Below, piece after piece: positions 2,231 through 24,924 of a stretch of 47,328 nucleotides of DNA (its first letter is position 1; every line of letters starts with the position of its first letter). The translations under genes were made by a program, and so were the position numbers. This stretch comes from Pseudomonadota bacterium. Lineage in GTDB: Bacteria > Pseudomonadota > Alphaproteobacteria > JAGOMX01. The stretch spans positions 1 to 47,328 of the forward strand of contig JBDLIP010000001.1 in NCBI GenBank assembly GCA_039714795.1, written 5' to 3'. The notes under the pieces are model-generated. The model made no database searches, was not told the DNA's origin, and worked only from the letters and a program-made list of their open reading frames with translations.

Positions 2231-3049
2231 TCATTTTTGCATATTCCAGTATTGGCTAATCCATGGAGATGGACGAATCGTTTTGTAGACGCACTTGAAA
2301 AACGGTAACCCCTCGGGCGACCAAACTCCACAAATGGCATCAGCAATCTTGGGATGCCCATGAAACGCTAAAACTTTTGTACCTTCCGGCAATTTTGGCT
2401 CAACAAAGAAACGTAAATACCACACTGGCAATGCATGAAACTTAAAGCTGCGGCACCACTCTTCAGGCCAAAATTTCAAGCGTCCCCACTTTTCAATCAC
2501 CTTCGCTGAGAGATACTCTTGGCTAGCAGTGTAAAACTGCTTAACGACTTCTTTCGGGTGTGCTTCAAAGTATTCTTTTATGAATCCAAGGGTGCCTACC
2601 CGCCACGAATAGCATGTTGCTTGCCCCACACGCTCACTTTTGACACTCCAGTCATTGATAATAACAAAATCATCGCCCAACGGATAAGAAACGAAGCAAT
2701 CCAGCTCACCGGTAATCACCACATCAAGATCAAAAAACAAAACACGCTGTCCGTTCAACCCACCCAACTCATCATCACAAAGGCCAGCTTCTTTTTGGTA
2801 AGCATACTTCACATCCTCTGGATTGCATTTCATCACAGGCAATGGTTGAGACAAAATCTCTGGGGTCAGTCCTGTTGCATCGTCGGTAAAACAGAAAAAA
2901 CGAAGTTCGTGTTTCTTCATGTTGCGTTTGACCATAGCGTACAAACAGTTGACGTCATGAGCCGTATACACCTGACCCCACTTAATACAAACAACGTTAG
3001 CAACTGGCTTTTTAGTCTGAGTTTTCTCCATGGTGTTTTCCATATTCAC
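2231..3049 (-). CDS. Conserved hypothetical protein, possibly GT-A-like nucleotide-sugar transferase
   Basis: 272-aa ORF. 'VVCIKWGQVYTAHDVNCLYAMVKRN...FFCFTDD' and the DxD-like 'FFDLDVVITG' resemble a small glycosyltransferase-like family. The start is uncertain (GTG 3049, ATG 3043 or ATG 3031). The product call is weak. Confidence 0.45.
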   Translation of the reverse strand: MNMENTMEKTQTKKPVANVVCIKWGQVYTAHDVNCLYAMVKRNMKKHELRFFCFTDDATGLTPEILSQPLPVMKCNPEDVKYAYQKEAGLCDDELGGLNGQRVLFFDLDVVITGELDCFVSYPLGDDFVIINDWSVKSERVGQATCYSWRVGTLGFIKEYFEAHPKEVVKQFYTASQEYLSAKVIEKWGRLKFWPEEWCRSFKFHALPVWYLRFFVEPKLPEGTKVLAFHGHPKIADAICGVWSPEGLPFFKCVYKTIRPSPWISQYWNMQK

Positions 3050-3230: not shown

Positions 3231-4280
3231 CTACGCTGCGATCCTATGATCCTCCGGTTTACCTTCCGTGCTTTTACCATAAGCAGGTCGATTGAATCGA
3301 TCGCCAGAAACATCTAGGGCCTGGCATGCAATGGCCTTAATCTGGTCTGTTGCTTCATCCGTCTTGACCAACAATGTGTTGATAAGAGCCTGTTGTTCCT
3401 TAATTTTAGCTTCAAGCGAAACGGTTTTTTGCTGCATCAGCTTACGCTCCCCTTCTATTTCCTTAGCCCTTAGTTCAGTGTCAAACTTAAATCGGGTTTG
3501 AAGCTCTGAAGTAACCCGTTTTTCTGTCTCCTCTACAGCTTTAGCAATTTCAGCCGGAATAGCATCAACGGTTTTCTTAAACTGAGCCAATTCGCTCTCG
3601 CTTTGTTTCAAGTCAGCTTCTCGCTGCCCAAGCACCCTTTTCTTTTCGGTCATTTCTTTCTCGAGAGCATTCTGTTTGGCCTTATATTCATCTTCGTCTT
3701 TGCGCCTAGACATCTTAAGGCTATACGAATACTCCTCCTCATCACGGCTACGCTTTCTATCAAGTTCGGATTTAAATTCCTTATACTCTTGCTCCAAAGT
3801 TTGCCGTTCTTTGTGCCAGTGTTGTCGCTTTTCAGCCATATCGTTTTCAAAAGCTGCTTGGGACTCTTGTATTTTCAGTTGATGTTTTTTGCTTTCTTCT
3901 TCTTGAGTAATGATGAGGGCAGACAATGTGTGGGCAGTATCTTTAATGCCGTAAAGATTTTGCAAATGCTCTTGCTCGACCGATATAGATTTTTGCAAAT
4001 CACTCAACCGGCTGAACTCACCAACCAGTTGTTCACTTAAATGGTCAAGTTGCTTGGTTAGATTAATTTTAAGCTCCGCCAGATTAGAAATAATTGCGTG
4101 CTCTGAATTTTTGGTAGCTCTGGACAAAGTATCCCGCTGTTCCACTGATTTCTGCTGTTGCTGAGGATTCTTTTCAGATTGATTTTGTAATTGTTTAACG
4201 ACCTGCTCATAGGCTTCCAAAATCTGATTTTTGGTGTTTTTGGCAGAAATATCTGAGGGGATTTGAGTTTTCTCGGGCAT
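3231..4280 (-). CDS. Charged coiled-coil protein of unknown function
   Basis: The ORF is strongly E/K/Q/R-rich with heptad-like character throughout and no recognisable catalytic motif. The ATG at 4280 is preceded by 'aggag' 8 nt upstream. I prefer it over the TTG at 4304 of the ORF track. Confidence 0.6.
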   Translation of the reverse strand: MPEKTQIPSDISAKNTKNQILEAYEQVVKQLQNQSEKNPQQQQKSVEQRDTLSRATKNSEHAIISNLAELKINLTKQLDHLSEQLVGEFSRLSDLQKSISVEQEHLQNLYGIKDTAHTLSALIITQEEESKKHQLKIQESQAAFENDMAEKRQHWHKERQTLEQEYKEFKSELDRKRSRDEEEYSYSLKMSRRKDEDEYKAKQNALEKEMTEKKRVLGQREADLKQSESELAQFKKTVDAIPAEIAKAVEETEKRVTSELQTRFKFDTELRAKEIEGERKLMQQKTVSLEAKIKEQQALINTLLVKTDEATDQIKAIACQALDVSGDRFNRPAYGKSTEGKPEDHRIAA

Positions 4281-4315
4281 TGTCTTTTCTCCTAATTTTT
4301 CCAACTGTAAAGCGG

Positions 4316-9379: not shown

Positions 9380-10507
9380 ATGGCTTTGAACCCTAACAAC
9401 TTTGATTGGCTGCAAAAATTACGCCAGATAAATGTGTTTGTGCTTATTCTCATTGGAATAATGGGTGCGATAAGCGCCATCATGCTCTACTCCGCTGCTG
9501 GGGGAGATGTGTCCCCCTGGGCTCAAAAGCAACTGCTGCGTTTTGCCATGGGAGTCACTATTATGTTGCTTGTAGCCCTGACCCCGCTTCATTTTTGGCT
9601 GCGACAAGCCTACGTACTCTATGGCGTCAGTGTGGTATTGTTAGTGATAGTCGAAATTGCTGGCACCATTGGTATGGGAGCACAAAGATGGATTGATCTT
9701 TATGTCTTTCGTTTGCAACCTTCTGAATTGGTTAAGTTAACCCTTGTGCTTTCTTTAGCCCGGTATTACCACTACGCCAGTCTTGAAAGCGCACGCAAAT
9801 TTATCTTTCATCTGCCGCCTCTGTTGATCACAATTATTCCCGCTGTCCTCGTATTGAAACAACCAGATTTGGGAACAGCTTTACTGTTATTCATGATCAC
9901 AGGGGTTATGATTTTTGTCTCTGGTATTCGTCTATGGAAGGTAGGGCTCATCTTAACCTCAGCAATTGCCTGCATGCCATTGGCCTGGATGTTTTTGCGC
10001 GATTATCAAAAAAATCGCGTGCTTACTTTCTTAAATCCTGAGCGTGATCCGCTGGGCTCTGGCTACCACATCTTGCAATCAAAGATTGCTTTTGGATCTG
10101 GCGGTGTTTGGGGCAAAGGTTTATTGCAAGGCAGCCAAAGTCAACTGAAATTTCTACCAGAAAAACACACCGATTTTATCTTTGCCATGTTATCGGAAGA
10201 ACTAGGAATGGTCGGCGGTATCATCCTGATTGGCTTCTACAGCCTCCTTATTTTCTATGGCTATATGGTCAGCCTGCATTGCCGCAATATTTTTGGCAAA
10301 CTACTGGCCTTTGGTCTGACGACTATTTTGTTTCTTTATATGTTTATCAACATGGCCATGGTCATGGGACTTTTGCCTATTGTGGGCATGCCACTTCCTC
10401 TGATCTCTTACGGCGGGACATCAATGCTGACGCTACTGACAGGGTTTGGCCTTATCTTATGCGTTGATCGGCACCGTCACCTACGCAGGGGATTAAGTGC
10501 TCCTTAG
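9380..10507 (+). CDS. rodA: SEDS-family peptidoglycan glycosyltransferase RodA
   Basis: 375-aa polytopic ORF. It carries 'QPSELVKL', 'KQPDLGTALL' and 'LPEKHTDFIFA', which are FtsW/RodA/SpoVE signatures. It lies downstream of mrdA. Confidence 0.95.
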   Translation: MALNPNNFDWLQKLRQINVFVLILIGIMGAISAIMLYSAAGGDVSPWAQKQLLRFAMGVTIMLLVALTPLHFWLRQAYVLYGVSVVLLVIVEIAGTIGMGAQRWIDLYVFRLQPSELVKLTLVLSLARYYHYASLESARKFIFHLPPLLITIIPAVLVLKQPDLGTALLLFMITGVMIFVSGIRLWKVGLILTSAIACMPLAWMFLRDYQKNRVLTFLNPERDPLGSGYHILQSKIAFGSGGVWGKGLLQGSQSQLKFLPEKHTDFIFAMLSEELGMVGGIILIGFYSLLIFYGYMVSLHCRNIFGKLLAFGLTTILFLYMFINMAMVMGLLPIVGMPLPLISYGGTSMLTLLTGFGLILCVDRHRHLRRGLSAP

Positions 10508-13656: not shown

Positions 13657-14457
13657 ATGAAAAAACTTACTTGGACATTTATACTAGCCGGAGTTTTGCT
13701 TATAGGATACAACCCAGCAAAAGCTACAATCCTAGAAAATCCTATTCAGCAAAGTTCTGAATTAAACAATGCAGACAATGTGAATGGGCTTATCTTAATT
13801 AAAGGAGGCAAAAACGGTGGTGAGGGAGGAAAATCCTTTCGCCAACATAGAAAAGGTAGAGGAGATCACAAAACATTCAGGAAACACAGAAGCAGAGGTG
13901 ACCATAAAGCCTACAGGCACCATAAAAGACAAGGGGGCAAAAAACATTTTAGTCACAGAAGAGGCGGAAAACAGAATTATGCCCACAAAAGGCACCGTGG
14001 AGACCGACATTACTCCCATAAAAGACATCGTGGAGACAGGCATTACGCCCATAAAAGACATCGTGGAGACAGGCATTACTCCCATAAAAGACATCGTGGA
14101 GACAGGCATTACGCCCATAAACGGCATCGTGGTGAGCGTCATTACGCTCGAAGAGGATATCATGGTGAACGTCGTCATGCACGCTGGGAAAAGGGCAATA
14201 AAGAAAAGCACGAGAACTGGAAGAATGGCTACTACCGCAATCATAAAAATGGCTACTACCGGAAGGGCAAAGGTAGCCGTGAGTATGAGGGAGATCCTTC
14301 TGAGTTTGAGGAAACTGAGATATTTGAAGGCGATGAGGTCAGTGATGAGGCAAGTGTTGAGCCTGAGGGAATCATTGAAGAGACCGGTAGAGGCCTGATG
14401 CAAAGAGCTCAAGATCGAGTCGTAGATGAAATGTTAAACCGCGTCCTACCACAATAA
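13657..14457 (+). CDS. Secreted, highly basic H/R/K-rich tandem-repeat protein with six RGD motifs and an acidic C-terminal tail
   Basis: SD 'aggag'. Signal peptide 'MKKLTWTFILAGVLLIGYNPAKA'. Five 11-aa units 'HKRHRGDRHY(S/A)'. Acidic tail 'EYEGDPSEFEETEIFEGDEVSDEASVEPEG'. I recognise no homologue. Confidence 0.75.
   Translation: MKKLTWTFILAGVLLIGYNPAKATILENPIQQSSELNNADNVNGLILIKGGKNGGEGGKSFRQHRKGRGDHKTFRKHRSRGDHKAYRHHKRQGGKKHFSHRRGGKQNYAHKRHRGDRHYSHKRHRGDRHYAHKRHRGDRHYSHKRHRGDRHYAHKRHRGERHYARRGYHGERRHARWEKGNKEKHENWKNGYYRNHKNGYYRKGKGSREYEGDPSEFEETEIFEGDEVSDEASVEPEGIIEETGRGLMQRAQDRVVDEMLNRVLPQ
13984..14148 (+). repeat. 33-bp tandem repeat x5 inside the CDS
   Basis: Units start at 13984, 14017, 14050, 14083 and 14116. 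Units 2-4 are identical except for one g/t (Ala/Ser). Unit 5 diverges (RGE). Confidence 0.95.
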
Positions 14458-19091: not shown

Positions 19092-19946
19092 CTAGATATA
19101 CATCTCGTTATCTTCAGAGATAAACTTTTTGTCGTAACCTTCAAACATACAGCGCTCAACCACGTAGGCTTGGGAAAATTCCGTTTTAATACTCTGAAAC
19201 ACGACAGGAAACGGAACTGATATCGGCTGATCACCAGAAAAAGCAAGGCGTTTTTCGAGAGCCTCTCGCTGGCCGCCAATCCAATCAACCCTTTTCTCAT
19301 AAGGTGTACTGGGGTGTATTTTGTGGCTCCGCATACGATAAAGTCCAATGGCGTGCATATAGAGCTCTTTAAGGGCGCCCTGTTCAGCTTGAACCTCGTG
19401 CTCGTTTGCAGCCGCTGCACAGACAAGACCTTCTTCGATTTGCGCATAAAAGATAACAAGCTTTACATTCTTATCCGCTAACTTAGGCCAAATCGCATAA
19501 AAACTGGAAAAACAAAATTCCTTGTCAATTCCTTGAAAAAAGCTTTTGTTTTCTTCATTAACCGCCTCTCTGACTTTGTAGGCGATGTCTTTATTTTCAA
19601 ACCATTCGGGCCATGCATACCTCTCCAACATTTCCCTGTAGGCAATGCTTTTTGCTTTGCGTTGGGCTTTTGCTTTCTGAAAAATAAAAGGATAAGCTGC
19701 AAAACCAGTCGAAGAATTAGCCGTTGAGGATTGATATGCTTTCCGTTCAACGTATTCTGACTGGGCTTTCATAACCGCCTTATACCAAGAAAAATCAGCA
19801 CCACACGCAATACGAGTAAAAATATTGCCAGCTCTTCCCGATTGATCATTAAGGCTACAAATGTACGCCTCCCCCACTTTCAGCTTTTGCAGCGAGAAAG
19901 TCGGAAGAAATTTAGAAAGGTAATTAAAACGAACTTTTTCCAGCAT
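19092..19946 (-). CDS. Hypothetical protein with YcaO-like motif pattern (short 'mini-YcaO' candidate)
   Basis: 284-aa ORF. Three motifs occur in YcaO order. 'KAQSEYVERKAY' resembles E. coli YcaO 'SALGEYFERLS' (recalled from memory). 'SSTGFAAY...AYREMLERYAW' resembles 'VSNGMSAGN...LSEVFERYV'. 'AAAANEHEVQAEQGALKELY' resembles 'FGAHPDFGVALERTVTELL'. A proline motif 'SVPFPVV' lies near the C-terminus. Spacing between motifs 1 and 2 is far shorter than in canonical YcaO. The gene is likely real, but the function is tentative. Confidence 0.45.
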   Translation of the reverse strand: MLEKVRFNYLSKFLPTFSLQKLKVGEAYICSLNDQSGRAGNIFTRIACGADFSWYKAVMKAQSEYVERKAYQSSTANSSTGFAAYPFIFQKAKAQRKAKSIAYREMLERYAWPEWFENKDIAYKVREAVNEENKSFFQGIDKEFCFSSFYAIWPKLADKNVKLVIFYAQIEEGLVCAAAANEHEVQAEQGALKELYMHAIGLYRMRSHKIHPSTPYEKRVDWIGGQREALEKRLAFSGDQPISVPFPVVFQSIKTEFSQAYVVERCMFEGYDKKFISEDNEMYI

Positions 19947-20169
19947 TATTAACCTCCGCTAGTCTTTACAATCAAACAAAATACCCAGCCACTGTACCAA
20001 ATCTCCATCTCAATTGATACTTTTTTTAACTCACTAACATTAATTATATATATTCTTTTTCAATCTTTGACATGATGTTTCTGACGTCAAAAAACTCGAC
20101 TCCTAGCCACAATGACTGGCCATCCGAAACTAGAATGAGCTAATAACCCTAGAAAGAATTATCAACAAG

Positions 20170-20298
20170 CTACAAAATATCTCTCCCAAGTTCCGTCTGT
20201 TCAGAAAGGTTTTCTGCATTCGCGCGATAATTTTCCGCCACAAAACAAAACACCTGCGCCACCAAAATCGCCGATAATAATAGGCAAAATCTTTTCAT
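20170..20298 (-). CDS. Small exported or membrane-anchored peptide, paralogue 2 (42 aa)
   Basis: 'MKRFCLLLSAILVAQVFCFVAENYRANAENLSEQTELGRDIL'. SD 'ggag' lies 10 nt upstream of the ATG at 20298. TAG replaces the CAG of paralogue 1. The ORF track misses it because another frame is longer. Confidence 0.5.
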   Translation of the reverse strand: MKRFCLLLSAILVAQVFCFVAENYRANAENLSEQTELGRDIL

Positions 20299-20529
20299 TT
20301 TCTATCTTCTCCACAAATTGGGGGTACACACCCCTCACTTGCGAGCATCCTAATATTTGCCAGCTAGAAAGGCAAGAAAATATGATAACCAAGTTTGAGA
20401 GATTTTTCTAACTCACTGACATTGGCGGGAGATGTATCTTCTTTTTCAAGTTCTGATACGATCTTTCTCAAAAAAAAACCAACCCCCCAACCAAAATAAT
20501 CGGCCATACAAAACAATAATTAGCTAATG

Positions 20530-20676
20530 TTAGTTAGTATTATCAACAAGCTGCAAAATATCTCTCCCAAGTTCCATCCGCTCAGAAAGGTTCTCTGCAT
20601 TTGCGCGACAATTTTCCGCCACAAAACAAAACACCTGCGCTACTAAAATTGCTGATAGCAGATAAAATCTTTTCAT
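20530..20676 (-). CDS. Small exported or membrane-anchored peptide, paralogue 1 (48 aa)
   Basis: 'MKRFYLLSAILVAQVFCFVAENCRANAENLSERMELGRDILQLVDNTN'. SD 'ggagg' lies 9 nt upstream of the internal ATG at 20676. It has a positively charged n-region plus a 17-aa hydrophobic stretch. It begins 61 nt after the STAND stop. Confidence 0.55.
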   Translation of the reverse strand: MKRFYLLSAILVAQVFCFVAENCRANAENLSERMELGRDILQLVDNTN

Positions 20677-20737
20677 TTTCCACTTCCTCCATAATTGGGC
20701 CTCAAACACCACTCCCGGGCATCCTAATCTCTGACAG

Positions 20738-23700
20738 TTAGAAAGGCAAGAAAATATGATAACCAAAACTAAGAGAGTTTTCTAACTCACTGACATTAGC
20801 AGTAGATGTATCTTCGTTTTCAAGTGCTGATGCGATCTTCTCAATATTTATATGCTGGGGGAGGTAAAAATCCTTGAAAACTCTCAAGGATTTTTTCAAT
20901 AATTCTTTTTTTTCCGTGTTTTCTAGGGTTAGTGCCAGATTGGCCATGGCCATGGCAGTGGTGGGATGATTTTTGCCATAAGAATGGCGGATTGTTTTAA
21001 GTGATTGCTGCAAAAGTTTTCTGGCATTCTGGACATCTCCAAGCAAACGGTAGACATTTCCTAAGTTTGCAGAAACTATGGCCGCTAAGAGATGACCTTC
21101 TCCATATTTCTCGTTAAGCTTTTCAATAGATTTTATGAGCAGTTTTTTACTTTGCAAATAATCTCCTAAAATGCAATGAACAATTCCCATACGCGCAATT
21201 AGAATGGAAATCCATGCATTGGTTGTATTATCATCCTTTTCAACAAATTTGAACGCTTCAGCCAAAAGCTGTTTGCTTTCAGAAGTCTTGTGTGTTGCAG
21301 CACAAGCCAGGGCTAGATTTACCATTGAAAGCGCGGTCCAAATGTGACTGTCTCCATGCAATTTTCTGCGTATTTTTAGGGCATTTCGAAAATATGTTTC
21401 GCTTTTTTGTAAATGACCTAAATCATAATAAACAAATCCCAACAGGATCTGATTGTACGCTAGACTAGAAATTGATGTGGGACTTTGAGAGTTTATGTAA
21501 AGAGCATCATCCAGTATCGTCTTTCCCTCTATCCTTAGACCCAACACATAATTAATCCACCCTAGCATATATAACACCTGAGCCGTTTCGGCATGATTGT
21601 TACCATAATGTTTCTGGTAGAGCACTAGTGTTTGGGCAAGCACGTTTTTGACCGTACGAAACTCCCCTAACAACATGTGTGCTGTACCATACCGGAAAAG
21701 TGCGAGTGCTGTTTTAGGGTGCTCTTTCCCATAGGTTTTTTCACTAATTGCGGCAATTTTTTTAAAAGCGTCTCGCTTTTTAAAGCTTTTGCCCAAATGG
21801 TGATAAACGGAACCCAATAAAGTTAAAATATGCAAGTTGGTTGGATGATTTTCACCATACAGAGATTCATTAATCTTCAAGGCTTCTTCTAAGATATGTT
21901 CTGCTTTATGGGGCTCATTTAAAACACGATAGGTAAGAGTGTAGATAGAAACCTGAGTTTCATCCGAGGTAAAGGAGCTGACCTCTTTTAGAAACTCTTC
22001 CAACCGAGGGATTGTTTGATCTATTAAATGACGTTCTTTGTTAGAAAGATCCGTATTCTTTGTCCTTCCGGGATATATTTCATCAATAACAACTTTCATC
22101 CCTTTCAAATAGGTCAGTCTTTGTTCCTGATCTAATTTATTCCTGAGCCAGCTAGAGACCAAGCGGTGAACCGAGATATCGTCACCTGAGATTTTTATCA
22201 AAGAGTATTGCCGCAAAATACCGAGCAACCTATTCAATTCGCATTCTGATTTATTATTATTGCCTTCAGATAAGTACCGCACCAAAAGCGATTTGGGAAT
22301 GCTTGCTGGCTGACAAAAAGAGATAAAATTCAGCAAATCAAGCGCCTTCTCACCGTCTTTTGTTTTCTTAATAGAGTTTAAACTAAGTTCCCATGTCGCA
22401 TAGACCGGGTCATGTGTAATATTCAAAGGTGTATTGCTATCGGATAACAGATGTTCTCTTTCAGTTTCATACAATTTTAGATAGTTCGAAATTGAAATGG
22501 CGTTTTCTGTGATATAACCTGCGGCTTGAGATATAGCTAAAGGGGTATAATGCAACTCGTTTAATAGTTTGGCAGCTCTTTGTTTATAGAGCGGTCCTTT
22601 CTGAAAGTTAGAAGGAAGTTGCGCTTCGAGCAAGGCAAAAGATTCCTTTTTTGTCATCACGTCAACCTCAACTGCATTTTTTAGCTTATGGTTGCTTGAG
22701 GTTACGATGATGTGAGCATTATTGGGTAGGTAGTCGTATAGCATAACCATATTTGGTGCATTATCATAGACTAGTAGGGTGCTCCCCTTATTTTCAATCC
22801 AAGTTTTTACTTCCCTAATTTTTTGCGCATCAGACATATTATCGGAAAACAGCTTCAGTTTGTTCCCTATCTCAAAATAATCCACCTTTAATGACGATTC
22901 ATTTTCTGCATTAAGCCATGCTCTAAATTTATAGGATTGCCTAGGATAGTGAATGGCATACATCGCTAAAAAAGTCTTACCGATGCCTCCCAATCCAACC
23001 ACCCCTATGATCTTTGTTGATTGTTTTGCTTGATCTTTGTCCTCAAATTGACTCCATATAGAATCCAGCAGTTCGGTTCGCTTAATATAAGGGTCTGGCA
23101 GCAAAGGGAGGTTCCACTTGAGCATTGAAGCACCCTGCTCTTTTGCAGAAGGTGCTGGCGATGATGGTAATGTTGCATGTACAGAAGAGCTATTGTTTTG
23201 CTTGTCTGTATCCCAATATTTTATATTTAAAGTTAAGAGTACTACACAGATTACTCCAAAAAAAGTTACACTAGTCGCAATGAATTTTAAATAAAAATCT
23301 CTGTTTAGTTCTAGCCTTGCTGCTTGTCTTGGCGTATCTGGCTCCGGCATTTTAGCTATGTTTTGTGTTTTAAATTCATCAAAAGATTCACTGATTTTTG
23401 CTTTTGGCAATAGCGTAGCTAAAAGATTCAAGACAAACAGGTAGTAGTTATCAAAATCTCCCAGGGCAAAGCACCCTAAGCACGAGTCAGATTTTTGCAC
23501 GTCTTTGAAAGAGGTTACTGGATCAAGCGAGAGAAAAATTGTTTGCATTCCCTCCTTTTGATGTTCTGGATTGCTAAGTTCTGACGTATCAGCACCAATG
23601 ATGACAACATAAAAATCTGGGAAGGTGCTTGGTGAGATTTCTATCAGCTGGATTCCCGACAGCTCAAGATGCCTTTTCAAACGTTTTATGTTCTCTGAAC

Positions 23701-24124
23701 TAGATTTCACCTTTGTAGAATCGTAATGAATGTGACAGGCAAGTTTTTTTTCGTTCGTCAGACGAGCGATTTCCTTCAGTTCTTTTTCGAAATTTACTTG
23801 CACAGTCAACTGCTTATAATGCTGCCTGAGCAGATCATCTTTTCCAGATCGTTCGATAAATTTGCGGATACTATGACGGCCACTTGATCCTATTTTTTGC
23901 CCGACCGTATTAATATGCGTTTCCACCGTACTTGGCGCAATTGCAAGTCGTGCAGCCACAGATTTTACATCCCACCCGCTTACGATACAGGCCATAACGT
24001 CGATTTGCCGTCGGGTAAATTCTATTCCCTGTATTACATTTAAATGTTTGGAATATAAATCTTCAAAAACTCTATCTTTTCTATTTAACATAATTTTCAT
24101 CTTCATCTTTGCATTGATAGGCAT
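20738..24124 (-). CDS. STAND-class protein: N-terminal LuxR/GerE HTH, hydrophobic helix, NB-ARC NTPase, C-terminal TPR array
   Basis: 1128 aa. HTH 'FTRRQIDVMACIVSGWDVKSVAARLAIAPSTVETHINTVGQKIG' (aa ~35-80). Hydrophobic helix 'YLKFIATSVTFFGVICVVLLTLN' (aa 278-300, nt 23225-23293). Walker A 'GVVGLGGIGKT' (nt 22973-23002). Walker B 'LLVYDNA', then 'IIVTSSN' and the GLPLA-like 'TPLAISQAAGY'. The last ~400 aa are kinesin-light-chain-type TPRs with a recurring 'YG.xHPxTA....LG' pattern. Confidence 0.85.
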   Translation of the reverse strand: MPINAKMKMKIMLNRKDRVFEDLYSKHLNVIQGIEFTRRQIDVMACIVSGWDVKSVAARLAIAPSTVETHINTVGQKIGSSGRHSIRKFIERSGKDDLLRQHYKQLTVQVNFEKELKEIARLTNEKKLACHIHYDSTKVKSSSENIKRLKRHLELSGIQLIEISPSTFPDFYVVIIGADTSELSNPEHQKEGMQTIFLSLDPVTSFKDVQKSDSCLGCFALGDFDNYYLFVLNLLATLLPKAKISESFDEFKTQNIAKMPEPDTPRQAARLELNRDFYLKFIATSVTFFGVICVVLLTLNIKYWDTDKQNNSSSVHATLPSSPAPSAKEQGASMLKWNLPLLPDPYIKRTELLDSIWSQFEDKDQAKQSTKIIGVVGLGGIGKTFLAMYAIHYPRQSYKFRAWLNAENESSLKVDYFEIGNKLKLFSDNMSDAQKIREVKTWIENKGSTLLVYDNAPNMVMLYDYLPNNAHIIVTSSNHKLKNAVEVDVMTKKESFALLEAQLPSNFQKGPLYKQRAAKLLNELHYTPLAISQAAGYITENAISISNYLKLYETEREHLLSDSNTPLNITHDPVYATWELSLNSIKKTKDGEKALDLLNFISFCQPASIPKSLLVRYLSEGNNNKSECELNRLLGILRQYSLIKISGDDISVHRLVSSWLRNKLDQEQRLTYLKGMKVVIDEIYPGRTKNTDLSNKERHLIDQTIPRLEEFLKEVSSFTSDETQVSIYTLTYRVLNEPHKAEHILEEALKINESLYGENHPTNLHILTLLGSVYHHLGKSFKKRDAFKKIAAISEKTYGKEHPKTALALFRYGTAHMLLGEFRTVKNVLAQTLVLYQKHYGNNHAETAQVLYMLGWINYVLGLRIEGKTILDDALYINSQSPTSISSLAYNQILLGFVYYDLGHLQKSETYFRNALKIRRKLHGDSHIWTALSMVNLALACAATHKTSESKQLLAEAFKFVEKDDNTTNAWISILIARMGIVHCILGDYLQSKKLLIKSIEKLNEKYGEGHLLAAIVSANLGNVYRLLGDVQNARKLLQQSLKTIRHSYGKNHPTTAMAMANLALTLENTEKKELLKKSLRVFKDFYLPQHINIEKIASALENEDTSTANVSELENSLSFGYHIFLPF

Positions 24125-24184
24125 TGATTTACTTTAAGATCAGAATCTATACTTAAAGAAAAATGAACTCCCTATTTTCTGTTA

Positions 24185-24260
24185 CGCTCAAAGCTCAAAG
24201 TGCCTACTTACCAGTGCAAACTCTACGCTTGCAGAATATCATTAAGCTAGAGATTTTCAT
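24185..24260 (-). repeat. Degenerate MITE remnant in the STAND-gene upstream region
   Basis: 'gctcaaagtgcctacttaccagtgcaaactctacgcttgcagaatatcattaagctagagattttcatc' aligns with the core and right arm of the reverse-oriented element. The left arm is absent. Confidence 0.55.
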
Positions 24261-24474
24261 CTGTCATTGGTACGTATCAACAGCACATTTCCTTTTAACA
24301 TAAGTGTTGGGTTCACCGCAAATTTTTACAACAACCAACTAGCGGTATCATCAGGACCGCGGTTTTTGTCCAAATGATTTTTGAGTTTTACTTGTAAAAT
24401 TCAAAATCGTTTGGTAACAAAAACGTATATTTTTGAACCACGCATAAAATTGGAAGTTGTTTCGCTCACATTAC

Positions 24475-24924
24475 TTAGTTATAGTGAGTATTGCTGTGGT
24501 TGATGTTGAAGGCGGTGCCATCTTTAACAAATCCCTGTTCCAATTTTGGAACTGGAGCTTCATCTAACCGCCGGATGTTACCATAAAAAGGAGTGATGAC
24601 AATTTCGGCACTGATGGTGTGAGGGCACTTGCTATGAGGGCATTGGTGACAGGATCCATAACGAACGTACTCCAGCTGACCTTCGATAAAAACCCCATCC
24701 CTTTTTTTGAGGTGCAAGTCAATATACTCTCTGGCCATAAAGTCGGTAACTGTAACCGTGTGCCGCCGGCATCTGATGTAGGTAAACCCGGTGGGCTCTT
24801 CACCAAAATCCCGGGTGATCACACTGAGAATGGTTTGAGCGTGGGTGGTTTTATCCCCCAAAGTATAGGGTGCAGCATCAATATAGCCAAGAAGGGTTAC
24901 TCGGTTGATTGAGTTTGTTTGCAT
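24475..24924 (-). CDS. Divergent SSB-like OB-fold protein without the acidic C-terminal tip
   Basis: 'INRVTLLGYIDAAP', 'EYIDLHLKKRDGVFIEGQLEY.RY' and 'ISAEIVIT' align with E. coli SSB 'VNKVILVGNLGQDP', '[20 protein letters not shown]' and 'YTTEVVVN' (recalled from memory). A Cys/His-rich insert 'SCHQCPHSKCPH' is present (nt 24619-24651). The C-terminus 'NINHSNTHYN' lacks a DDDIPF-like tail. Confidence 0.6.
   Translation of the reverse strand: MQTNSINRVTLLGYIDAAPYTLGDKTTHAQTILSVITRDFGEEPTGFTYIRCRRHTVTVTDFMAREYIDLHLKKRDGVFIEGQLEYVRYGSCHQCPHSKCPHTISAEIVITPFYGNIRRLDEAPVPKLEQGFVKDGTAFNINHSNTHYN

Follow-up and report, generated by a model that had tools for sequence, protein, structure and literature searches.

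A family of LuxR-type helix-turn-helix STAND proteins with a predicted transmembrane helix, some of them encoded beside a small signal-like ORF and a compact YcaO-fold protein

The window analyzed here, 47,328 nucleotides from a MAG named "Pseudomonadota bacterium," encodes a STAND protein in which a LuxR/GerE-type helix-turn-helix (HTH), an unassigned alpha/beta domain, a transmembrane (TM)-grade helix, an NB-ARC NTPase and a TPR array follow one another. The protein belongs to a large, undescribed and uncharacterized family. In the reading that we prefer, with a probability of about 0.45, it is a single-pass, one-component transcription regulator resembling ToxR and CadC, with the NB-ARC-TPR part outside, that probably senses an exported peptide and activates its own cassette. 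It may then be an NLR-type switch working outside the cytoplasm. The other genes of the window are housekeeping genes only.

Domain organization of the STAND protein

Positions 20738 to 24124 of the minus strand form one uninterrupted ORF of 1128 aa. The NCBI gene model starts at M9 and has 1120 aa (P0001), and the alignment of homologues suggests that the true start lies at M9 to M12 (M9 at 24100 or M12 at 24091). The features of this region, with their evidence, are as follows.

24125..24332, minus strand: region upstream of the STAND gene, presumed promoter/operator
20738..24124, minus strand: HTH-TM-NB-ARC-TPR STAND gene (longest ORF, 1128 aa)
23876..24019, minus strand: GerE/LuxR-type HTH, aa 36-83 (Pfam GerE, AF2, Foldseek)
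23357..23740, minus strand: alpha/beta (Rossmann/flavodoxin-like) domain without family assignment, aa 129-256 (AF2, Foldseek, alignments)
23222..23290, minus strand: single predicted transmembrane helix, aa 279-301 (KD19, Hessa sum)
22502..23065, minus strand: NB-ARC NTPase, aa 354-541 (Pfam, PDB profile search, alignment)
22121..22354, minus strand: DUF7779 region, aa 591-668 (Pfam), with an invariant MHD-type His653 (VHR)
20870..21877, minus strand: kinesin-light-chain-type TPR array (TPR_12/TPR_10), aa ~750-1085 (Pfam, PDB profile search)

This order of HTH, unassigned region, TM, NB-ARC and TPR, proposed in a preliminary description of the window, was borne out by Pfam, AlphaFold and hydrophobicity. 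The HTH matched Pfam GerE with 37.7 bits (cutoff, 23.5; 1.6e-9), was modeled with a pLDDT above 90, and aligned in Foldseek to GerE (1fse) with a TM-score of ~0.8 and an rmsd of 1.3 A. At its residues T66, V67, H70, and K77 there is little or no variation. Pfam and NCBIfam gave zero matches over aa ~95 to 270, where the AlphaFold model has a long linker helix (aa 96 to 122) and then the alpha/beta domain (pLDDT, ~75 to 90), which carries a conserved NYY motif (Y227, Y228) and is missing from some family members (P0009, P0018). The NB-ARC match was 29.4 bits (cutoff, 23.5), and in the PDB profile search the NTPase region matched plant NLR NB-ARC domains (Roq1; E, 1.4e-15). Walker A (G377-T384), Walker B (D454-N455), and a GLPL-type P528-L529 are present. 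The sensor-1 position is Ser (TSS), with TSR or TTR in relatives; we list this missing Arg against the preferred reading. Pfam TPR_12 and TPR_10 scored 153.8 and 108.1 bits, and the PDB profile search confirmed the kinesin-light-chain type that had been proposed for the array (E, 3e-40). A C-terminal tail (...GYHIFLPF) is conserved within the subclade. The region upstream of the gene is 76% identical in nucleotides to that of the related locus L001 and is co-conserved with the module; a specific operator was not identified in it.

At 50% identity, at least 906 clusters contain the HTH + alpha/beta + TM module. Homologues of identical architecture, which the preliminary description had thought would count against it if they were many and already characterized, are thus abundant, and none is characterized. 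Source records name them only "tetratricopeptide repeat protein," "hypothetical," or "CsgD family regulator." The Walker A Lys, Walker B Asp, GLPL Pro, and MHD His are invariant across the family, and Walker B DN (108/113) and sensor-1 T[TS]R (87/106) are conserved to the same degree as in cytoplasmic relatives that lack the TM segment.

A single hydrophobic helix precedes the NTPase

The helix at aa 279 to 301, LKFIATSVTFFGVICVVLLTLNI, is strongly hydrophobic over 21 to 23 residues and includes Gly, Ser, and Thr. Its 19-residue Kyte-Doolittle (KD) mean was 2.45 and its summed Hessa biological-scale dG was -1.93; the runner-up segment elsewhere in the protein reached 1.59 and +6.05. Four K/R residues lie in the preceding 15 residues and two lie after the helix. 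These values agree with the earlier description of a 23-residue hydrophobic segment with basic residues on its N-terminal side, and neither the hydrophobicity nor the charge-bias measures rejected the helix.

Exactly one segment with a KD of at least 1.9 was found in 121 of 148 family representatives, and two segments were found in one; most of the remainder showed a KD of 1.7 to 1.88 at the equivalent place or were fragments. The segment starts 66 to 101 aa (median, 75) before the P-loop. Its uncharged run has a median length of 21 aa (IQR, 19 to 23) with K/R right at the N-terminal edge, and K+R was higher upstream than downstream in 94 proteins, tied in 19, and lower in 9. The K/R bias, the single TM segment, and its placement before the P-loop are family-wide. 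The HTH and the TM segment strictly co-occur: the HTH is never present in the TM-less relatives, which reach a maximum KD of 1.1 to 1.7 and have no equivalent segment. The position of the helix is kept across the family but its sequence is not, and a single segment at the equivalent site in proteins only 20 to 35% identical is more than chance. Judged from sequence, the TM-grade helix is real.

We infer that the helix spans the inner membrane with its N terminus in and its C terminus out. Membrane-protein biogenesis makes a large, folded, K/R-rich N-terminal module an implausible export substrate, and the N-terminal 270 aa form such a module, so that a helix crossing the membrane would be expected to take this orientation. 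The cysteine content falls from 1.61% N-terminal to the TM segment to 0.71% C-terminal to it, compared with 1.32% in the equivalent C-terminal region of TM-less Gram-negative relatives (p, 1e-4). TM-less Actinobacteria have 0.75%, like the C-terminal part of the TM family; the depletion is therefore confounded and favors an outer-side location only weakly. Ser/Thr kinases from the same search (P0034, P0040-45) carry homologous TPR_12/TPR_10 arrays C-terminal to a TM helix, a precedent for this type of TPR outside the cytoplasm.

It is unlikely, though well worth weighing, that the HTH and the NB-ARC-TPR part are both cytoplasmic and that the helix acts as an anchor, either non-spanning (monotopic or peripheral) or conditional. 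The protein would then be an AfsR-like STAND tethered at the membrane, for example near a peptide exporter, with its TPR array sensing a cytoplasmic ligand such as an unexported precursor or a modified peptide. The helix itself speaks against this. A charge-free helix of 19 to 23 residues, hydrophobic on all faces, with a negative insertion free energy and a K/R flank, has the signature of a spanning segment, and a re-entrant hairpin would need a longer uncharged run. Co-translational capture followed by insertion is the normal course for such segments, and packing into a protein core predicts a conserved helix sequence, whereas this one is unconserved.

Regulated proteolysis, in which the outer module would sense the ligand and a cut in or near the TM helix would free the HTH + alpha/beta module, appears improbable. 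The N-terminal 260 aa resemble, in the AF2 model, an HTH plus Rossmann-like regulator of a complete soluble one-component type. Foldseek gave full-length matches to NanR, an HTH+SIS regulator (E, 3e-4), and to regulators of the LysR type, but at a low TM-score (~0.2). Gly, Ser, and Thr within the helix would suit cleavage, but neither a site-1 nor a site-2 protease gene was found in the cassette, and known ToxR-like regulators are active while membrane-bound (PMC10269533).

A conserved cassette lies downstream of the STAND gene

Downstream of the STAND gene lie a conserved small ORF with features of an exported peptide and a YcaO-like gene, both of which the preliminary description had omitted.

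20150..20839, no strand assigned: tandem duplication with a unit of ~375-381 bp (STAND 3' tail + small ORF)
20530..20676, minus strand: small ORF copy A, 48 aa, MKRFYLLSAILVAQVFCFVAENCRANAENLSERMELGRDILQLVDNTN (positional homologues)
20364..20516, minus strand: duplicated remnant of the STAND 3' end (...VSELEKSLKLGYHIFLPF), part of the tandem duplication
20170..20298, minus strand: small ORF copy B, 42 aa, MKRFCLLLSAILVAQVFCFVAENYRANAENLSEQTELGRDIL, tandem duplicate
19092..19946, minus strand: compact YcaO-fold protein, 284 aa, conserved STAND partner (AF2, Foldseek, Pfam in relatives)

The gene order STAND, ORF of 42 to 50 aa, YcaO-like gene is present in five genomes (the window, L001, L007, L030, and L031), with STAND proteins that are only 35 to 70% identical. 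The small ORFs begin with M-K-[KR] and a hydrophobic run of ~15 residues resembling a Sec signal. Copy A has such a signal- or anchor-like N terminus and a short, acidic, Cys-containing tail, and its positional homologues occur at the other four loci, with two copies in L007. The duplicated stretches, 20531-20839 and 20150-20465, are 86 to 89% identical; 20021-20082 holds part of a third copy, and L007 shows an analogous duplication. A similar signal-like ORF of 59 aa lies downstream of the STAND gene in L011. In the copies from the window and L001, cleavage is predicted at a non-canonical site (FVA|EN), and their product may be membrane-anchored rather than secreted.

The YcaO-like partner has 79% amino acid identity with its L001 counterpart and 51% with that of L007, and L030 and L031 have it in the adjacent position. 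Pfam YcaO matched 15 of 23 members of the partner family; the window copy fell below the Pfam threshold, and no PDB match was found at the sequence level. Its AF2 model (pLDDT, 89.5) matched YcaO (6ci7), McbD (6gri), and 4q86 in Foldseek with a probability of 1.0 and a TMq of ~0.6. The fold matches that of known YcaO enzymes (the McrA-thioamidation YcaO of M. kandleri and M. jannaschii, McbD, and E. coli YcaO), but these have ~360 to 580 aa, compared with 284 aa here. Invariant ExxER-type acidic motifs (E64/E67/R68 and E105/E108/R109) are consistent with a putative ATP/Mg site. No TfuA, E1-like, or dehydrogenase partner was found near the gene. The hydrophobic N terminus of the small ORF is atypical of a YcaO substrate leader, which counts against its being the YcaO substrate.

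In the preferred reading, the HTH and alpha/beta domain would lie in the cytoplasm and the NB-ARC-TPR part in the periplasm. A ligand bound by the TPR array would trigger the NB-ARC switch and oligomerization, bringing the HTH domains together in the cytoplasm. LuxR-type HTHs are dimeric when they bind DNA, and their assembly would lead to transcription of the adjacent cassette. The most likely ligand would be the product of the small ORF immediately downstream, either exported or anchored in the membrane with the tail outside, and perhaps modified by the compact YcaO enzyme. Such a circuit would be one of autoinduction or peptide signaling, with the logic of RiPP autoinduction or RRNPP systems without peptide re-import. 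Besides the conserved gene order, other export-related neighbors speak for this reading. Megaera copies sit among Pal, porin, BON, RND, and ABC genes, and the gene of a distant paralogue (P0012) faces, in divergent orientation, a lasso-peptide cluster that has three precursors and an ABC exporter.

Nucleotide supply and carriers of the family

We know of no extracytoplasmic NB-ARC or STAND NTPase; all characterized STANDs work in ATP-containing compartments. The invariant NTPase motifs point to nucleotide binding and, in a free-living bacterium, would point to a cytoplasmic location, against an outer NB-ARC. The tension between the predicted topology and the intact NTPase is genuine. In favor of a cytoplasmic protein on a non-spanning anchor, the motifs are conserved as in the cytoplasmic TM-less relatives, the known STANDs are all cytoplasmic, and AfsR shows ATP-dependent relief of inhibition. 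The YcaO enzyme is likewise cytoplasmic and ATP-requiring, which places its substrate in the cytoplasm at some stage.

The only named carriers, "Ca. Megaera polyxenophila" and "Ca. Paracaedimonas/Caedibacter acanthamoebae," are obligate protist endosymbionts; Rickettsiales and Rickettsiaceae MAGs also carry the family. In "Ca. Megaera," which dwells inside the cytoplasm of its host, five tlc nucleotide translocases are expressed (PMC13134042). "Ca. Caedibacter/Paracaedimonas" belongs to the amoeba symbionts that live as energy parasites, of which the ATP/ADP translocase is a hallmark (PMC4198247). These carriers import host ATP across the periplasm, so that the earlier objection that the periplasm holds no ATP is weakened for their lineages. 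The NB-ARC domain could be served by host ATP and ADP permeating the periplasm of cytosol-dwelling, tlc-bearing endosymbionts, a lifestyle that the window's organism may share.

The same hosts raise the prospect of a eukaryote-like effector, exported into a host membrane with its ATPase facing the ATP-rich host cytosol and its HTH in a non-bacterial or moonlighting role, which we hold to be very improbable. The family is present in protist endosymbionts, some members have LRR, Sel1, and U-box proteins and TraD as neighbors, and the second NB-ARC+Sel1 proteins adjoining paralogues have N-terminal hydrophobic segments. TPR proteins of Megaera are regarded as putative effectors (PMC13134042). The invariant recognition-helix residues T66, V67, and H70, however, argue for bacterial DNA binding, and a regulatory unit of the bacterium is what the conserved cassette, with its cytoplasmic YcaO and its small ORF, points to. 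The very high hydrophobicity of the TM segment also counts against export to the host; it favors SRP targeting to the bacterial inner membrane, and secreted TM effectors are moderately hydrophobic.

An Avs-type antiphage role had also been suggested. As an abortive-infection STAND, the protein would disrupt the membrane through its oligomerized hydrophobic helices, with or without a transcriptional output; of the readings weighed here we give this one the least credence. Many conflict systems are built on an NB-ARC-TPR scaffold, the closest TM-less relatives (P0020-27) have TIR and ParA-like N termini, and the several paralogues per genome with frequent pseudogenization suggest rapid turnover. 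However, PADLOC gave generic TPR and HTH matches and nothing specific, defence-island neighbors were absent at the loci examined, and obligate intracellular symbionts meet few phages. Nor is a DNA-binding domain at the N terminus, with its recognition residues conserved, a killing effector, and the helix lies between two large domains, not at a free terminus.

Comparison with known regulators

The preliminary description had presented the protein as an inverted MalT/LAL. It shares with that group a STAND NTPase, a LuxR-type HTH, and TPR-like repeats (Pfam TPR_MalT matched weakly, with 46.8 bits), but its domains come in the reverse order, its NTPase is of the NB-ARC rather than the MalT type, and MalT is soluble. 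The NCBIfam MalT model matched the HTH alone, with 27.5 bits against a cutoff of 537 bits. The standard STAND order is effector, NOD, sensor, and a DNA-binding domain followed by NOD and TPR is already known from AfsR; with an NTPase that is nearest to FxsT-like proteins, the inverted-MalT framing is weak.

Transmembrane transcription regulators (TTRs) such as ToxR, CadC, TcpP, and VtrA have, like the predicted STAND topology, a cytoplasmic N-terminal DNA-binding domain joined through one TM helix to a C-terminal sensor across the membrane. ToxS, TcpH, and VtrC are encoded by small downstream genes with an N-terminal hydrophobic segment, as here (PMC9214523, PMC10269533), although the downstream ORF in our family has just 42 to 50 aa. 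ToxR-type TTRs differ further in their OmpR-type winged helix, where the STAND family has a LuxR/GerE HTH, and in a small periplasmic fold in place of an 830-aa NB-ARC-TPR NTPase. GerE, LuxR, TPR, and NB-ARC go unmentioned in the TTR survey.

The likeness to RRNPP regulators and RiPP autoinduction is one of logic only, a TPR sensor and an HTH beside a small exported peptide gene. RRNPP regulators (PlcR, NprR, PrgX, Rap) are cytoplasmic, need peptide re-import, and have XRE-type HTHs and no NTPase; NisRK, of the RiPP autoinduction circuit for nisin, is a two-component system. The best NCBIfam matches were RiPP-associated TPR models, FxsT and then HaaT. FxsT of the FxSxx-COOH system (NF040586) was the closest model for aa 346 to 1082 (E, 1.4e-82), with a score of 278.5 bits that is below the model cutoff of 300 bits. 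The Walker B "LLVYDN" and "TSRN" motifs and a link to a RiPP-like peptide system are held in common, but FxsT proteins have a ParA/TIR or no N-terminal domain and neither HTH nor TM. No radical-SAM FxsB/FxsC context was found within the window. Peptide-maturation genes were absent near five family members (L002, L033, L036, L039, and L040), which counts against the preferred reading.

AfsR of Streptomyces coelicolor, in which ATP binding relieves the DNA-binding domain of inhibition by NOD and TPR (PMC10936776), has an N-terminal DNA-binding effector, an NB-ARC-type NOD, and a C-terminal TPR, as here, and controls secondary-metabolite biosynthesis. Our family profile matched its TPR region (8k60; E, 1.3e-19). 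AfsR, a large SARP-family STAND, differs in its OmpR-type winged-helix + BTA domain, and it is soluble and actinobacterial, with neither TM helix nor alpha/beta insert. GutR, cited in PMC13581612 as a STAND regulator, likewise has its DNA-binding domain N-terminal to NOD-TPR. AfsR thus provides a precedent for a DNA-binding domain + NOD + TPR protein controlling peptide or secondary-metabolite loci.

Domain order and relation to known STAND regulators

The STAND protein is encoded by a single ORF of 1,128 amino acids on the minus strand of the window, at positions 20738 to 24124. The NCBI model of the same protein from the same MAG starts at M9, and the alignment of homologues points to a start between M9 and M12. 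The preliminary description had an HTH at the N terminus followed by NB-ARC and then TPRs, and Pfam bore out that order, with the following domains on the protein.

aa 36 to 83: GerE/LuxR HTH (Pfam GerE, 37.7 bits, cutoff 23.5)
aa 354 to 541: NB-ARC (Pfam, 29.4 bits, cutoff 23.5)
aa 591 to 668: DUF7779 (Pfam)
aa about 750 to 1085: strong TPR_12/TPR_10 array (Pfam)

The solved structures in the PDB matched by the family profile were kinesin-light-chain TPRs, the TPR region of AfsR, and plant NLR NB-ARC domains. No family model matched aa 95 to 270. An AlphaFold2 model built from a 12-sequence alignment showed a confident HTH, a long linker helix (96 to 122), an alpha/beta domain (129 to 256), and a 43-residue helix that holds the hydrophobic segment, followed by a disordered linker rich in Ser, Pro, and Asn. 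In Foldseek comparisons, the modelled HTH matched GerE (1fse) with a TM-score of 0.80 to 0.84 and an rmsd of about 1.3 Å, pointing to the four-helix GerE type. The modelled alpha/beta domain gave only generic Rossmann-like, SIS, LysR, and REC matches of low TM-score. A TIR identity for aa 120 to 250, an idea taken from a CHIHYDS motif, was rejected when AlphaFold2 and Foldseek returned no TIR match.

The protein had been described at first as an inverted MalT/LAL regulator. MalT and the LAL proteins have an N-terminal MalT-type NTPase and a C-terminal LuxR HTH, whereas the HTH here is N-terminal, and the MalT NCBIfam model scored 27.5 bits against a cutoff of 537, over aa 31 to 85 only. That framing gave way to a comparison with AfsR, which has the same order of DNA-binding domain, NOD, and TPRs. 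The closest relative of the NTPase-TPR body is FxsT (NF040586, 278.5 bits, under the cutoff of 300), but the FxsT context of an FxsA precursor and radical-SAM FxsB/FxsC does not occur at the window, which instead has a YcaO-like gene, a small ORF, atp, alaS, and recA. The membrane layout is shared with the ToxR-like transmembrane transcription regulators, although these use an OmpR-type winged helix and the domain here is of the GerE/LuxR type. The survey of those regulators makes no mention of GerE, LuxR, TPR, or NB-ARC, the surveys of STAND proteins list MalT, GutR, and AfsR as the only regulators, and our literature search found no paper describing an HTH-TM-STAND protein. It fits better as a so far undescribed form of STAND transcription regulator, one that is predicted to span the membrane and whose gene belongs to a peptide cassette.

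A conserved hydrophobic helix ahead of an intact NTPase

The segment at aa 279 to 301 (LKFIATSVTFFGVICVVLLTLNI) has the highest hydrophobicity in the protein by a wide margin, with a 19-residue Kyte-Doolittle (KD) mean of 2.45 and a summed Hessa score of -1.93; the second-best segment reaches 1.59 and +6.05, respectively. Lys and Arg are commoner before it than after it. These values agree with the preliminary account of a strongly hydrophobic stretch between HTH and NB-ARC with basic residues on its N-terminal side. A DNA-binding domain is followed by exactly one predicted transmembrane (TM) helix, which is the ToxR-like layout.

A first homology search yielded about 15 proteins of 1,000 to 1,200 amino acids with GerE, NB-ARC, and TPR domains and 21 to 74% identity, all with a single TM-grade segment 65 to 90 residues before the P-loop. 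Relatives with a ParA domain, a TIR domain, or no N-terminal domain were without such a segment. When only the N-terminal module (HTH, alpha/beta, TM) was used as the profile in an exhaustive search, at least 906 representative clusters carrying it were retrieved at E ≤ 1e-30, mostly of 1,100 to 1,200 amino acids. HTH-TM-NB-ARC-TPR is a large, conserved, undescribed family and not a one-off fusion. Segments with KD ≥ 1.9 were counted in the 148 newly listed representatives: 121 proteins have just one, and one more has two; the remainder mostly reach 1.7 to 1.88 at the same spot or are fragments. A P-loop is present in 93 of the 94 long proteins in that list, and the segment starts 66 to 101 residues (median, 75) before it. 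The count of Lys plus Arg favours the upstream side of the segment in 94 proteins and the downstream side in 9, with 19 ties. The charge-free run has a median of 21 residues (interquartile range, 19 to 23), with Lys or Arg at its N-terminal boundary. The sequence of the helix is not conserved across the family, a pattern that fits a membrane anchor and not a buried core helix. Cys is less frequent C-terminal to the helix within the family, yet its level there equals that of Actinobacterial TM-less relatives, so that Cys depletion is weak support for an outside location.

The nucleotide-binding motifs are kept along with the helix. Walker A (GLGGIGKT, G377 to T384), Walker B (LLVYDN, D454), the GLPL-type P528-L529 (TPLAI), and the MHD-type H653 (VHR) are invariant, and in the alignment G377, G380, G382, K383, D454-N455, T475, P528, and H653 are all invariant or nearly so. 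Walker B reads "DN" in 108 of 113 sequences and sensor-1 reads T[TS]R in 87 of 106; the motifs of TM-less relatives are of this type too. The puzzle posed by the preliminary description, a TM-grade helix and an intact NTPase in one protein, therefore stands as a real and conserved feature. The chief rival to a spanning topology is that the whole protein is cytoplasmic and the helix is a non-spanning anchor; this would explain the intact NTPase but leaves the features of the helix unexplained.

The window copy has itself lost the sensor-1 Arg (RNBS-B "TTR"), with Ser at aa 477 (window positions 22694 to 22696) giving TSS in place of TSR or TTR. The homologue P0004 shares this Ser, and the loss is not family-wide. 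From the altered residue, nucleotide sensing by this particular copy may differ.

Carriers of the family

The scan of GTDB genomes used the tighter family alignment A2, the 16-sequence alignment A1 being too divergent, and its recall is limited to two peptide patterns. Full-length matches in representative genomes came from a Rickettsiales MAG, a Rickettsiaceae MAG, several Alphaproteobacteria MAGs, and "Ca. Caedibacter (Paracaedimonas) acanthamoebae," which carries the family on both chromosome and plasmid. HTH and TM helix strictly co-occur in the GTDB loci. The full architecture was also found on PLSDB plasmids of "Ca. Megaera polyxenophila" and "Ca. Paracaedimonas," where the copies are labelled only as "tetratricopeptide domain-containing protein" or "HTH and tetratricopeptide repeat-containing protein." Megaera, which dwells in the cytoplasm of its host, has five expressed tlc translocases for nucleotides, and its TPR proteins have been treated as putative effectors (PMC13134042). 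A host-targeted effector role is less well supported for the present family, and the "TPR effectors" of Rickettsiales and Holosporales genomes would, on reannotation, become transcription regulators.

Paralogues are common, with two within 10 kb at one locus (L003), a tandem pair at L030, and two at L039. Some copies, in endosymbiont genomes and MAGs, are disrupted, split into at least two ORFs (L007, 6013 to 9429; L011, 5998 to 8871; L038, 5971 to 9173); the splits reflect pseudogenisation or assembly errors and suggest rapid paralogue turnover. Eukaryote-like U-box/LRR proteins adjoin family members at L040 (172 to 1152), L002 (3046 to 3834), and L036 (725 to 2125), consistent with host-associated carriers.

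A three-gene cassette with a compact YcaO

DNA comparison with L001, where the orthologue is 69 to 70% identical, showed homology only over window positions 24332 to 20539 and 19991 to 19093, with different flanks. The second block encodes a protein of 284 amino acids that shares 79% identity with the one at L001, and this partner also lies, at 51% identity, downstream of a 35%-identical STAND homologue in L007. At L030 and L031, too, homologues of the partner come immediately after HTH-NB-ARC-TPR genes. Searches of PDB sequences with the partner gave no match, and its likeness to YcaO came from fold comparison: the AlphaFold2 model (pLDDT 89.5) matched the YcaOs of M. kandleri and M. jannaschii, McbD, and E. 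coli YcaO with a Foldseek probability of 1.0. Pfam YcaO (PF02624) matches 15 of the 23 family members, at best with an E value of 8.7e-8, and the window copy itself does not reach the threshold of E 0.01. ExxER-type acidic motifs are invariant in the family. The partner is a compact YcaO-fold protein and a putative ATP-dependent activator of the backbone of a peptide substrate.

In five of five loci, a small ORF of 42 to 50 amino acids separates the STAND gene from the YcaO-like one; it consists of M-K-[KR], about 15 hydrophobic residues, and a short acidic tail that usually has a Cys. In the window it reads MKRFYLLSAILVAQVFCFVA-ENCRANAENLSERMELGRDILQLVDNTN, of which ENCRANAENLSERMELGRDILQLVDNTN is the putative mature peptide. 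A similar signal-like ORF of 59 amino acids lies 3' of the STAND gene of the "Ca. Caedibacter" homologue (L011). The small ORF has been duplicated together with the end of the STAND gene, as found by a repeat search; TRF missed this long-period duplication.

Window 19092 to 19946, minus strand: partner gene, compact YcaO
Window 20150 to 20839: tandem duplication, unit of about 378 bp, comprising the 3'-terminal ~100 bp of the STAND gene plus the small ORF, 86 to 89% identity
Window 20021 to 20082: partial third copy of the duplication
L007, 9476 to 9628 and 10283 to 10435: analogous duplication, with a STAND-tail remnant at 10138 to 10236

Upstream regions aligned across the cassettes were conserved only in the closest pair, with no shared palindrome and no operator identified. 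Promoter and terminator scans did not rise above shuffled expectation, and neither an Rfam family nor a tRNA was found.

The YcaO-linked STAND proteins (window positions 20738 to 20770, L001, L007, L030, and L031) have a conserved hydrophobic/aromatic C-terminal tail, in the variants GYHIFLPF, GYYILLPL, DYILLLPF, MIQYPF, and TIQFPF, that is absent from more distant paralogues. It could be a TPR self-docking peptide or a sorting signal.

Neighbourhoods of other paralogues

Next to the distant paralogue P0012 (26% identical), in divergent orientation, lies a lasso-peptide cluster of textbook form. Its three precursors of 53 to 55 amino acids have a leader ending in SLLTQ, then a core with G1 and E8 (...LLTQ/G......E8), and Pro/Lys-rich tails. 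They are accompanied by a B-type transglutaminase (Transglut_core3), an Asn-synthase-like cyclase (Asn_synthase), and an ABC exporter. No lasso cluster lies alongside the related P0013, and adjacency to a peptide locus is therefore subclade-specific and not universal. Other paralogues are without peptide genes nearby; they are followed by a second NB-ARC protein with Sel1 repeats or surrounded by exported Sel1, LRR, and U-box proteins.

L035, 1 to 4524 (identical in L034), Alphaproteobacteria bacterium 16-39-46: complete-looking lasso cluster, divergent to the HTH-TM-STAND paralogue
L036, 6725 to 10456, and L040, 5512 to 10110: second large NB-ARC and Sel1-repeat gene directly 3' of the HTH-TM-STAND gene

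These second proteins have an N-terminal hydrophobic segment that resembles a signal or an anchor, with uncertain start codons. They may be another NB-ARC predicted outside the cytoplasm, or one half of a sensor/helper pair.

A possible transmembrane receptor

We favour a ToxR-like N-in/C-out regulator, with the NB-ARC-TPR part predicted on the periplasmic side, because of the physical features of the helix, an N-terminal module of 270 amino acids that is not plausibly exportable, and the export-related neighbours. For a periplasmic sensor there are the Lys/Arg bias (94 versus 9), the TM length, and those neighbours; against it are the intact NTPase motifs and, above all, the lack of ATP in the compartment where the NTPase would lie. 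For cytosol-dwelling endosymbionts we infer that this last objection is weakened, because the Tlc transporters of their inner membrane must take host ATP from the periplasm; the organism of the window is itself labelled only "Pseudomonadota bacterium."

STAND proteins are activated by oligomerisation, and LuxR HTHs bind DNA as dimers. Oligomerisation on the outer side would cluster the HTHs across the membrane, a simple form of transmembrane signalling. The small exported or anchored peptide would be the obvious candidate ligand for the TPR sensor, and the YcaO may modify it before export. In its fullest form, to which we give roughly a one-in-four chance, the proposal is that this is the first STAND/NLR-type NTPase outside the cytoplasm: a periplasmic receptor of cytosol-dwelling endosymbionts, fuelled by host ATP through the outer membrane and signalling across the inner membrane to its LuxR HTH on its own exported YcaO-modified (or lasso-type) peptide. 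Regulated proteolysis is a less well supported alternative. So is the antiphage function raised at the outset by analogy with Avs proteins, for which PADLOC returned only generic TPR (2.5e-9) and HTH-region matches, and the N-terminal domain is an HTH.

No STAND/NLR switch is known to work in a compartment that lacks ATP. The present family, with at least 906 clusters, combines fully intact nucleotide-binding motifs with what is predicted to be a canonical single-pass TM helix of N-in bias. Either the NB-ARC lies outside the cytoplasm or a TM-grade helix is kept from entering the bilayer in some new manner, and both answers are unusual. If the full proposal were true, a transmembrane peptide-signalling system made of one protein would exist in energy-parasite lineages alone. 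The occurrence of the family in tlc-bearing protist endosymbionts suggests that periplasmic host ATP may have opened a niche for ATP-dependent extracytoplasmic signalling. The family is also a guide to peptide loci (compact YcaO, lasso) of obligate intracellular bacteria, in which, as far as we know, peptide signalling and peptide natural products are hardly explored.

Genomic setting of the window

The neighbours in the window are housekeeping genes, including atp, alaS, and recA, with the split F0/F1 atp arrangement of Alphaproteobacteria. GC content dips to 0.385 to 0.40 at the STAND gene, compared with 0.43 to 0.49 in the flanks. The dip, taken with the differing distance of the cassette from the atp genes in the window and at L031, suggests an inserted island near the atp locus.

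Window 24475 to 24924, minus strand: 149-aa ORF directly upstream of the STAND gene, faintly SSB-like (NCBIfam E = 0.015) and Cys/His-rich (CHQCPHSKCPH)

This ORF was considered as a member of the module and set aside, since it lies outside the stretch shared with L001. Three orphan ORFs of 266 to 357 amino acids without a Pfam match lie elsewhere in the window, at 2231 to 3049 and 3231 to 4304 on the minus strand and at 13657 to 14457 on the plus strand, the last without an NCBIfam match either.

At L031 (8014 to 14279), a stretch of about 6.5 kb that includes genes for a phage-type integrase and a Fic protein separates the cassette from atpF/atpE; the cassette of the window abuts the same F0 atp genes directly.
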